Source of the DNA: Dehalococcoidia bacterium
Lineage (GTDB): Bacteria > Chloroflexota > Dehalococcoidia > Lucifugimonadales > UBA3495
NCBI GenBank assembly: GCA_030740155.1
Contig: JASLXV010000023.1
Coordinates: forward strand, 1 to 64,000
DNA: 64,000 bases
Reading direction: 5' to 3'
Made by a program: the position numbers. Shown piece after piece: positions 42,001 to 45,000 of this stretch (positions are counted from its first letter, which is position 1; every line of letters starts with the position of its first letter).

Positions 42001-45000
42001 GGGAGCGGATAAACCGCGATCCGCCACCGGAGCCCGTGGCCCCGGACCCCGAGGCCTTCGACTTCAATGCCGCCATGCGCGAGACCCGGGTGAAGACCGA
42101 GGAGCTGCTGGCCGAAGGCAACATCGAGGAGGCGGAGGCGTATATGGAGGAGCGACGCCGGTTCCTGGCGGACAACGGCAGCTTCATTCGGAAGATCAAC
42201 CAGGCCTTCTTCGCCTTTCACGGGTCCTACGCCACCAGCGCGGCGTCGATCAGCCCCATAGACGCTCAACTGAGGGAGCTTCAGGACCGCAGTGGCTCCC
42301 TGGAGGGCTTCATCAAGTCCGTCGGCCGGTTCGGCAGCTACCAGGAGTTCCTGGACCACCTGGAACAGCCTCAGGCGGGGCAAGGCCGGGCGGCGGGGGA
42401 CCAGGGCGCCGGCATCGAAGACCCGGCCGGCAGGCCCGAGACCTTGGCCTCCGCACCCTGACGGCTTCTTGACCGGTCAGCGCTCGTCCTCGGCCCAGAA
42501 TTCCTCCGGCCGCTTGTTATACTTCCCATAGCTCAGCACATCGTCGAACCACAGCCAGAACCGGTTCAGCCACCGCCAGCGCCAGTGTTTGATGGAGATG
42601 CGAGCCGCCACGTGCACCCAGTGGGTGGACTTGGTCCAAGGGCAGGTCCGGGTGCAATTGGAGCAGGTGGTGCCGACCCGGTTCTGGTACCCCATGCACT
42701 TCTTCGCGTCGACCATCCACTGGAGGACCCCGGTGGTGTTGCACTCGTTGTTTGGCTGATAGCTTCGCTCGCCCGTCGGAATGGCCCCGGCACCGCACTT
42801 CCGGGTGCATTTCAGACAGATATCGCAGAACTCGGTGATGCCGAAGTCCCGGGCGCCGTCGGGCTCCAGCGGCAGGTCGGTGATGACTTTGGATATCCGC
42901 AGGCGGGACCCAATCTTGGGGTTGATCAGGTTGCTGTGCCGGCCCACCTGACCGAGCCCCGCGTCGACGGCCAGGGGGATGCTCAGCGCCACGTCGTTGC
43001 CGCAAGGGATTGCGTGGTACCCCAGGCCTCGAATAAACTCGGCCAGCATCCAAACGGTTGGCGCCAGCCTGGTATAGGCCATGGTGCTGAACGCCTCCGT
43101 GAGGAGGGTCGGCGCGTACTCCGCGCCCTTGGAGCCCCCGGGCCATTCGTGCAGCATCACCACCACGTACTGCATCTCCTTTGGAATGACGCGAGTCCCA
43201 TCTTCCAGAAGAGTGGGCGCATCGTACTGTTCCAGGCCGGGCTCGTCGGAGAACTTGATGGGGTACTGTTTCATCGCCTTCTTGTCGAAGTAATGGGAGT
43301 ACACCCAACGCCGGTCCAGCCTGGCAATACCGGCCTGGTTCGCGCCGAACACCCTGGCGGCCTTACGCACGACCTTGGATGCCTCTTTGGTGGGAGCCTC
43401 CCAGCGCTGCCCTGGCGCGGGTCCCAACTGGGACTGCCAGGCGGTGGAGGGCTGATCCGGCTCATTCTTCGAGAACCTCAGCAGATTGAGGAAGGAATCT
43501 GCCGCGGCGTCCAGGCTCCAGGCGGGCCGGTCGTAGCCGCTCCGCCCCTTTTCAACAAGCAGGTGCTGCTTGGTTTTTAGCTTGGCGCGTTCCGCGAAAG
43601 CCACCGGATCATAGAGCGCCTGGGTGCCCATATTGTTCATCTGGTTGAACCTTACGTACGAGCTTTGCACCTCGTACATTTCGGCAGCCGTGACAAAGCC
43701 GTTTGGGCTCGGGTTCTCTGGTTGTTGCACCTTAGGGGCCGGCCGCTGCTTGATCTTCATGCCGTAAGAACTCCAATGGGCGCCAAATTATCGGTCGCCG
43801 CTCCGGATACCGGATCAGGGACGTACAAATCTCTGGCCTCTCTACCCTCCAAGGCCACGGTTGCCTCCGCTAGTTTAGTGCCGTGTAATTGGCTTGTCAC
43901 CCAGCCGGTAATCCCGGCGGCGCTTCTCTGGATTCCGGCCTTCGCCGGAATGACGGGAGCGGATGGGACTACCGCCCAGTTTCGCCGATTTAGATTCATT
44001 GCACAAAATACGCTAATCCCTGGTTTCGGTCACGGCCGTTAAGCTCATCCGTTGTCCCAGAGCCTGTCGAAGGGCGCCGCGCCGGTGGTTCGACAGGCTC
44101 ACCACGAACGGTCGAATTTCGTCGCGGTTCGTTCTCCCGGCATCGCCCGGAGGGGCGTAACGGCGCTCACCGCGAACGGCGCCGGTGGAGCCGATTATCA
44201 CGAGACAGCCGGCTAGCCGTCCCCCAGGTGTCTGATCTCCCGCAGGAACTCCGCGCCGGCGAGTGCGACAAGGTCCGACAGGCCCAGGTCGAACTTCTTG
44301 ACCCCCAACTCGTATCGACGTTTGGTTGCCTCGCGATCGAACACCACGCTGAGGCTGACATCCACGCCCGCCTTGACGATCTCCACGATCATGGCGTCCA
44401 TGGTCCGGTCGACCTCTGCCTGGTCCGGCATGCCCATGGACTGCCACAAGTCCCTGGGGCCGATCTGAATACAGTCGATACCCGGCACGGCGAGAATCTC
44501 CGACAGATTCTGAACCGCCTCGACCTCCTCCAGTTGGCACAGGACGAACACCTCCCGGTTGGCCATCTCGGTGTATTCGCGTCCGATGACGTCCAGCCCA
44601 AACCACGCCCCCCGGCCCTTTTCGTACACGGTACGCGAACCCTCGGGGTAGAACCGGCAGGCCTGGACCACGGCGCGGGCGTCCACGGCCGTGTTGATTC
44701 GAGGGATATGGACCCCGGCGGCGCCCACGTCCAGGTAGCGTAGTATTTGATCCTCTGAGAACGCCATCCGGATTATGACCGGGATGTTGAAGGCGTCTCC
44801 GGCCCGAATGAGGTTCTCCACCTCCCGCTCGTCCATGGGCAGATGCTCGCAGTCGATGGTCACGTAGTCATATTCCAACGCCCCAAACAGCTCGACCATC
44901 TCGGGACAATACGAACCGAGTCTCCCACCCACCACAATCTGGTTCTCTTTGAGCTTTGCCTTCATGCTATTGCTGCGTATTCTCATCATCACCCCTTGTG

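Follow-up and report, generated by a model that had tools for sequence, protein, structure and literature searches.

The stretch of DNA considered here, which we call the window, comprises 64,000 nucleotides of contig C23 from a host genome of 3.6 Mb that is 93.7% complete, with 7.65% contamination. On its minus strand lies g00584 (42477..43760), an rdhA-family gene that starts with ATG, contains no internal stops and encodes a protein of 427 amino acids without a TAT leader or transmembrane (TM) helix. A GGAG motif resembling a ribosome binding site can be read from the sequence at 43771..43774 of the same strand, 10 nt upstream of the ATG; it supports the ATG as start, so that a longer leader is not expected. 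The GC content of the gene (0.62, with a GC3 of 0.82) matches that of its neighbours.

The catalytic residues and the Fe-S motifs of g00584 can be placed on the minus strand. Tyr229 (43074..43076) aligns with Tyr246 of PceA and with Tyr426 of NpRdhA, the proton donor; Arg288 (42897..42899) aligns with PceA Arg305 and NpRdhA Lys488; and Asn255 aligns with PceA Asn272. The first Fe-S motif, C312-x2-C315-x2-C318-x3-C322 (42795..42827), is followed by Gly in 120/120 proteins of the family to which g00584 belongs, hereafter F1, where Pro is usual. The second, C355-x10-C366-x2-C369-x3-C373 (42642..42698), contains the invariant Gln359. Tyr229, Arg288, Asn255 and all eight Fe-S cysteines are likewise invariant in the 120 F1 proteins. 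The three PceA residues are those named in passages of PMC5500849, and Tyr426/Lys488 are presented as the NpRdhA dyad in passages of PMC7565698.

In profile searches, g00584 scores 197.7 bits against TIGR02486, whose cut-off is 160.35, and the four relatives that were scored reach 168.7-181.8; the QueG profile, TIGR00276, yields 58.2 against a cut-off of 200. Its PDB matches are PceA 4uqu (E 2.9e-54) and 8q4h (1.5e-49), then NpRdhA 4ras (3.7e-22) and QueG (2.6e-5), and a profile match to PceA has E 5.9e-58, spanning positions 60-414. None of 14 control genomes has a TIGR02486 match at E<=1e-20, in agreement with the absence from controls given in the preliminary description of this locus. That description had also called g00584 a reductive dehalogenase, an assignment upheld by the intact reading frame, the score over the cut-off, the Tyr/Arg pair and the eight cysteines. 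On the strength of its sequence, g00584 is a genuine signal-less RdhA belonging to an uncharacterised clade.

Where in the cell does this protein reside? No TAT motif, hydrophobic leader (best 11-aa hydropathy 0.66) or TM segment is found in g00584, and the three upstream frames close to its start do not hold a hidden or frameshifted leader. The same applies to the family: TAT signals and TM-like segments are both absent from all 120 F1 proteins, and across 79 F1 loci (our own plus 78 of the 80 others, two incomplete ones being left out) the one loose TAT match belongs to a distant member and comes without a hydrophobic stretch. As for the membrane anchor, no small same-strand hydrophobic ORF resembling RdhB occurs within 2 kb of g00584. 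A small hydrophobic ORF lies near the F1 gene in 4 of the 67 loci with enough flank, and the four are all different and unrelated. When applied to respiratory-type RdhAs as controls, the TAT test was positive in 13/13 cases and the anchor test in 8/13; a strict TAT pattern, which undercounts, recognises 47 of 126 long RdhA representatives of 50% clusters. The earlier statement that g00584 has neither a TAT signal nor RdhB therefore stands. Since TatC is encoded in the same genome, export would be available but unused. A cytoplasmic location, which had been deemed probable, is well supported: without TAT, RdhB or a TM segment, the protein is most likely cytoplasmic. The missing TAT and RdhB are not in themselves surprising.

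The convergent downstream gene (41142..42461, plus strand) encodes 439 amino acids with a hydrophobic N-terminus; it falls in no Pfam or NCBIfam family and is not RdhB. The upstream gene (44213..44992, minus strand) encodes an HpcH/HpaI-family aldolase of 259 amino acids, is not RdhB either, and recurs in only 4 compared loci. Together with this aldolase, an OYE flavoenzyme, a DAO oxidoreductase, NpdG, a thiolase and a CoA transferase make the window neighbours general catabolic genes. No conserved F1 operon emerged, the best recurring neighbours being DUF1501/DUF1800 in 16/79 loci, within one lineage, and in the compared loci neither a ring-cleavage nor an electron-donor gene accompanies F1. 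The label "catabolic" formerly given to g00584 thus finds no genomic support: no neighbour appears in more than 16 of the 79 loci, and the protein is missing the vestigial duplicated cobalamin-binding domain, which passages of PMC10463259 describe as a feature of proven oxygen-tolerant catabolic RdhAs.

Among 36 other genomes of the same family, 8 carry a full-length orthologue of g00584 (61-81%), against 0 of 24 genomes from other families of the order; with our own included, this makes 9 of the 61 sampled genomes. In a wider draw, F1 occurs in 44/201 same-family genomes and 9/27 genera, a count that includes a few partial or more distant copies. It is mostly single copy per genome and patchy (for example, 0/52 in genus g2). 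Among 80 F1 loci kept from 130 in named genomes, 76 have record titles naming Dehalococcoidia, Chloroflexi or SAR202, and four are "SAR202 cluster bacterium" records (bin22, Io17-Chloro-G4, OSU_TB06 and AC-647-P02). It is by these titles, and by the earlier note, that we refer to the host as SAR202. Some of the F1-carrying records, by their titles bin22, SB0662 and RHO, we take to be bins of sponge symbionts. At least 97% of the words of g00584 occur in 17 DNA runs, which come from 10 studies and without exception carry the label marine or seawater metagenome; as all of these runs are possible sources of the assembly, "pelagic" is a reasonable but not an independent description. Short contigs inside g00584 appear in three metatranscriptomes (two in X18, one each in X19 and X20). 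Because these runs were picked for g00584, the contigs have neither strand nor level, and those of X19 and X20 also span neighbours, they are not counted as expression of g00584.

The relation to PceA deserves a closer look. The tree (IQ-TREE, LG+G4) comprises 47 rows picked from a 209-row set, whose own FastTree has long outgroup branches. It places g00584 in an 11-row TAT-less clade (support 100/99) with proteins from groundwater Chloroflexi, Syntrophobacterales and Bacillota; among the tree rows, no characterised enzyme falls in this clade. Sulfurospirillum and BhbA have clades of their own, separate from it, on an open backbone. The AU test does not reject a topology that unites g00584 with Sulfurospirillum (p-AU 0.275). 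In the ESM Atlas, unnamed 4Fe-4S clusters come first and RdhA clusters appear at 0.93. The claim that g00584 is closest to PceA is consequently right as regards the best solved structure, but the tree puts the protein in a separate clade; the "PceA-type" label owes itself to the small number of structures solved.

More can be said about the putative active site, with the proviso that the pocket assignments come from alignments at ~30-35% identity. Ser225 of g00584 is aligned with NpRdhA Ser422, which binds the phenol OH. Glu222, present in 120/120 F1 proteins, takes the position of NpRdhA Ala419, which lines the pocket of the second bromine; Glu at this position is found in 17/144 other RdhAs too, and so is not unique to F1. 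The invariant Gln359 stands at the position of PceA Trp376 and NpRdhA Arg552, while Ala87 and Thr365 are in place of PceA Tyr102 and Tyr382. The predicted pocket is polar, with Ser225, Glu222, Gln359 and Arg361 in addition to Ala87 and Thr365, and would suggest a polar substrate that bears halogen on just one side, rather than PCE or 2,6-dihalophenols. A structure model built from a narrow 36-row alignment is poor (pLDDT 48.9); its fold search still returns PceA first, at an rmsd of 9-16 A that makes it unusable for pocket analysis.

The genome holds a second protein of interest, g00995 (C32:130920-132245, plus strand), with 441 amino acids, which defines a family that we call F2. With TIGR02486 it scores 113.8, under the cut-off, as do two tandem copies (103-105), and with TIGR00276 it scores 47.0 (cut-off 200). 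DUF1730 (PF08331) is absent from both g00584 and g00995. The best PDB match of g00995 is NpRdhA 4ras (E 8.2e-25), and the F2 family profile gives E 3.9e-34 with NpRdhA vs 8.7e-8 with QueG. Its structure model (pLDDT 81.6) resembles 8q4h, 4uqu and 6zxu with Z of 24.3, 24.1 and 23.4 (rmsd 3.2-3.5 A over 292-327 residues), vs 14.3 for QueG (2.8 A over 197 residues). Among 168 F2 proteins, Tyr175 is kept in 166, Arg236 (K488 position) and Arg296 (R552 position) in 165 each, Glu168, again at the NpRdhA A419 position as in F1, in 165-167, and the eight cysteines in all. No F2 protein has a TAT signal, and none of 120 has a TM-like segment. The concern voiced in the preliminary description, that g00995 might be QueG-related, is largely removed by the structural scores and by the true QueG encoded on C85 (312.2 vs 200, with DUF1730 and HEAT domains). 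F2 is an RdhA-like, non-QueG family missed by annotation, whose members are labelled ferredoxin or hypothetical in the sources and, in some cases, "epoxyqueuosine reductase".

F2 is also as widespread as had been proposed. It occurs in 45/61 sampled genomes and 33/36 same-family relatives, 14 of the latter having tandem copies (within 5 kb); it was found in 94/201 genomes of the order, with up to 8 copies per genome, and in 2/251 phylum-wide genomes, our own included. One member is named from Nitrospinae. The identity between tandem copies is 76-81% in five arrays, whereas a sixth has 63%. In the IQ-TREE tree, F2 stands by itself on a long branch (1.41, support 100/100), which is placed outside the remaining RdhA rows. 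"NpRdhA-like" is a fair term for its core, but a clade shared with NpRdhA is not what the best tree gives; the union of F2 with NpRdhA/BhbA is not rejected (p-AU 0.375). As neither this grouping nor that of F1 with PceA is rejected by the AU tests, the tree only shows that both are unsupported.

The F2 loci present several features of their own. A general F2 operon was not found, although a ThDP enzyme lies beside F2 in 13/50 genome loci; at the F2 locus this enzyme is under all cut-offs and nearest to acetolactate synthase and 2-hydroxyacyl-CoA lyase. Tandem arrays at L216-L219 (G013, G023, G009 and G018) are flanked by a pentapeptide-repeat/TIR gene, which in L216-L218 follows a syntenic series of rsmI, the ThDP enzyme and three F2 copies. 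In 7/79 metagenome loci, all within one lineage (L243, L246, L278, L280, L284, L285 and L288), F2 is adjacent to a BtuF/heme-class periplasmic binding protein (PF01497; BtuF E only 5e-4). The same order has, in addition, a third RdhA-like family at L021 (G040), L022 (G009) and L024 (G027), with proteins of 458-466 aa, a TIGR02486 score of 146.7 and a branch of its own (100/100); it has Gln and His at the catalytic Tyr/Arg positions in 3/3 members. Each copy is preceded by a gene of ~210 aa that has no Pfam match and weakly resembles the F1 profile; it may be a vestigial domain that was split off. The QueG/RdhA superfamily is also represented in the host genome by two more short B12/Fe-S proteins, at C35:1380-2126 and on C8 (L003, L004), which are far below both cut-offs.

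How do these proteins compare with known systems? Like PceA (4uqu from S. multivorans and the Dehalobacter-type 8q4h), g00584 has a single B12/2x[4Fe-4S] core and equivalents of Tyr246, Arg305 and Asn272; unlike respiratory PceA, it comes without TAT leader and RdhB, belongs to a separate clade, and has Ala, Gln and Thr instead of Tyr102, Trp376 and Tyr382. Like NpRdhA and BhbA (4ras, 6zxu; Comamonas pBHB), both g00584 and g00995 are without TAT. The former keeps the equivalents of S422 and Y426, with Arg at K488, and the latter those of Y426 and R552, with a basic residue in the K488 position; it also shares the stretch His-Ser that follows GYxA. Unlike NpRdhA and BhbA, both have one core with neither a vestigial B12 domain nor a reductase fusion (427 and 441 vs 700-1100 aa), carry Glu at the A419 second-halogen pocket, and group elsewhere in the best tree. 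By architecture and description, F1 and F2 match the "simplified cytosolic" RdhAs in passages of PMC12219181 and the Tat-less marine RDases in those of PMC12660952, being short, signal-less, single-core proteins of marine Chloroflexota; they differ in that the proteins described there originate from anoxic seep sediments. With QueG (5d08, 5d6s), F1 and F2 share the B12/Fe-S superfamily fold, but they are far under its cut-off and without DUF1730 or HEAT, and the genome has a separate QueG.

A putative B12-dependent enzyme calls attention to the host's corrinoid genes. At C8:17500-26300 lie the anaerobic corrin genes cbiC, D, T, L, F, G and H with a CbiX-like chelatase; at C105:9300-16900 lie the lower-ligand and salvage genes cobB, cobA, cobT, cobS, cbiB and cobD; and cobQ is on C56. 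The matches for the chelatase, cbiG, cbiT and cobD are under their cut-offs, in a survey without cbiE, cbiJ and cobU. The marker cbiF is present in 166/201 same-family genomes and in 34/44 F1 carriers (10/44 are without it), so that F1 shows no enrichment among genomes that make B12. Across the order, cbiF is found in 13/201 genomes, all of them F2 carriers, and B12 synthesis is therefore a mark of this family of SAR202 and of one more. Among the 94 F2 carriers, 81 show no cbiF and 50 no cobS, these genomes being incomplete and related. The proposed link to self-made B12 accordingly applies to this genome and to the family, but not to the wide F2 family (13/94 carriers). The genome also encodes an Fpr-like reductase (ORF on C80), a heme-copper oxidase and, on a small contig, a NarG/NxrA-type gene over its cut-off (C87:445-3636), which could be from contamination.

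Taken as a whole, the reading that we favour, with a probability of roughly 0.55, is that g00584 is a soluble, cytoplasmic, single-core B12 dehalogenase, fed by ferredoxin and acting on natural haloaromatics. The enzyme would bind the cobamide made by the host through the anaerobic cbi/cob pathway, together with two [4Fe-4S] clusters. Low-potential electrons would come from free ferredoxin reduced by the Fpr-like NADPH reductase; NpRdhA itself runs in vitro on ferredoxin and flavodoxin reductase, as stated in passages of PMC7565698. The cob(I)amide would cleave the C-Br, C-Cl or C-I bond of the haloaromatic, with Tyr229 donating the proton, and the dehalogenated product would pass to the oxidative enzymes of the host, which would make the role detoxifying or catabolic, not respiratory; "catabolic" is retained here as an inferred role. 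F2 probably works in the same way, though with less certainty. Judged from sequence, reductive dehalogenation by SAR202 is plausible, with slightly better than even odds for g00584 and lower ones for F2.

Does the substrate have to carry a halogen? An RdhA-fold B12/Fe-S reductase might instead reduce C-O or C-S bonds or epoxides in refractory organic matter, or take part in corrinoid handling. We give this about one chance in four, and regard F2 as the likelier candidate, ahead of g00584. It would agree with the long F2 branch outside the other RdhA rows, with the core-gene-like, syntenic placing of F2 beside rsmI and the ThDP enzyme, with the absence of a visible cobS in 50 of the 94 carriers, and with the third family, where the Tyr/Arg pair is replaced and the fold thus repurposed. 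On the other hand, F2 preserves Tyr175, Arg236, Arg296 and the eight cysteines almost throughout, and g00584 is over the RdhA cut-off and nested among RdhAs.

Rather unlikely, in our estimate, is that g00584 serves as an electron sink facing the cytoplasm, namely a peripherally membrane-bound RdhA of low-oxygen water that leaves the organohalide carbon unused. The C-terminal helix of PceA binds the membrane, and F1 has a conserved Trp/Arg-rich helix (residues ~385-409) aligned with it; the NarG gene, from a small contig of a genome with some contamination, would fit as well. Tat-less marine RDases are, moreover, taken as cytoplasmic enzymes of organohalide-respiring bacteria in passages of PMC12660952. 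Against this stand the lack of an anchor, TM segment or electron-transfer neighbour, the mostly single copy and the heme-copper oxidase of the host. That g00995, or both genes, could be a divergent epoxyqueuosine reductase is very improbable: the weak TIGR00276 scores and the labels in some sources are outweighed by the true QueG on C85, by the closer RdhA matches of the F2 model and profile, and by up to 8 F2 copies per genome. Mis-binning of g00584, or its recent gain from an anaerobe, which would make it uninformative on SAR202, was suggested by the contamination and by the patchy presence; against it speak the neighbour-like GC and GC3 and the orthologues across 9 genera and the four SAR202-titled records, so that mis-binning is refuted and the reading as a whole is very improbable.

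As for the literature, the kind of enzyme is not new. In passages of PMC12660952, 95.2% of marine RDases are without Tat and RdhB, Anaerolineae and not Dehalococcoidia are the named RDase hosts, and marine Dehalococcoidia have mainly hydrolytic dehalogenases; one supplement of that paper contains no SAR202 terms. Passages of PMC12219181 define the "simplified cytosolic" RdhA-like type (~395 aa) in Chloroflexota and Desulfobacterota, and one of its supplements does not name UBA3495 or SAR202. The preliminary description had cited reductive dehalogenases in unnamed hadal MAGs including Chloroflexota; prior art is closer than that, since Table S4 of PMC12750322, by KEGG/UniProt annotation and with no analysis of RDase type, scores a reductive dehalogenase in 6/7 UBA3495 and 5/6 SAR202-order MAGs listed. 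Passages of PMC9416657 report cobP and cobQ in SAR202 subcluster III, and those of PMC7506110 mention putative rdh genes for clusters of marine Dehalococcoidia; those of PMC10284905 give no RDase components outside Dehalococcoidales, and those of PMC5395668, PMC5864207, PMC9088039 and PMC7688785 do not report RdhA in SAR202. Literature searches, covering few subscription journals, returned no paper describing F1 or F2, which supplements may hold. Signal-less RDases and, from the PMC12750322 supplement, the association of reductive dehalogenases with SAR202/UBA3495 are therefore already known, while the two defined families, their spread, the tandem expansion and the pocket prediction are new.

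Reductive dehalogenation in Dehalococcoidia is regarded as a property of those members that respire anaerobically. A conserved RdhA in ~1/5 of one SAR202 family, with an RdhA-like protein in ~1/2 of the order, would change this picture if the proteins are active. A bolder scenario, tentative and less probable than our reading of g00584, is that SAR202 possesses two independent lineages of cytoplasmic B12 dehalogenases, with F2 as an unrecognised, deep-branching one, tandem-expanded like other SAR202 enzyme families, and active in oxygenated water. Were it true, natural organobromines and organoiodines would have a major reductive sink in the abundant SAR202 of the dark ocean and of host-associated habitats, whose dehalogenation would open these compounds to oxidation. 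As g00584 and g00995 are both small, soluble and expressible, the question of dehalogenation can be tested directly.

A last observation concerns the DNA upstream of g00584. A promoter scan returned one weak site vs 0.3 expected. A palindromic repeat lies at 43930-43954, upstream of the gene, and again at 13162-13226 and 4665-4689 of the window; the window contains 4 matches, where chance predicts 0, and the whole genome 151, both strands counted, and the read depth jumps at the repeat.
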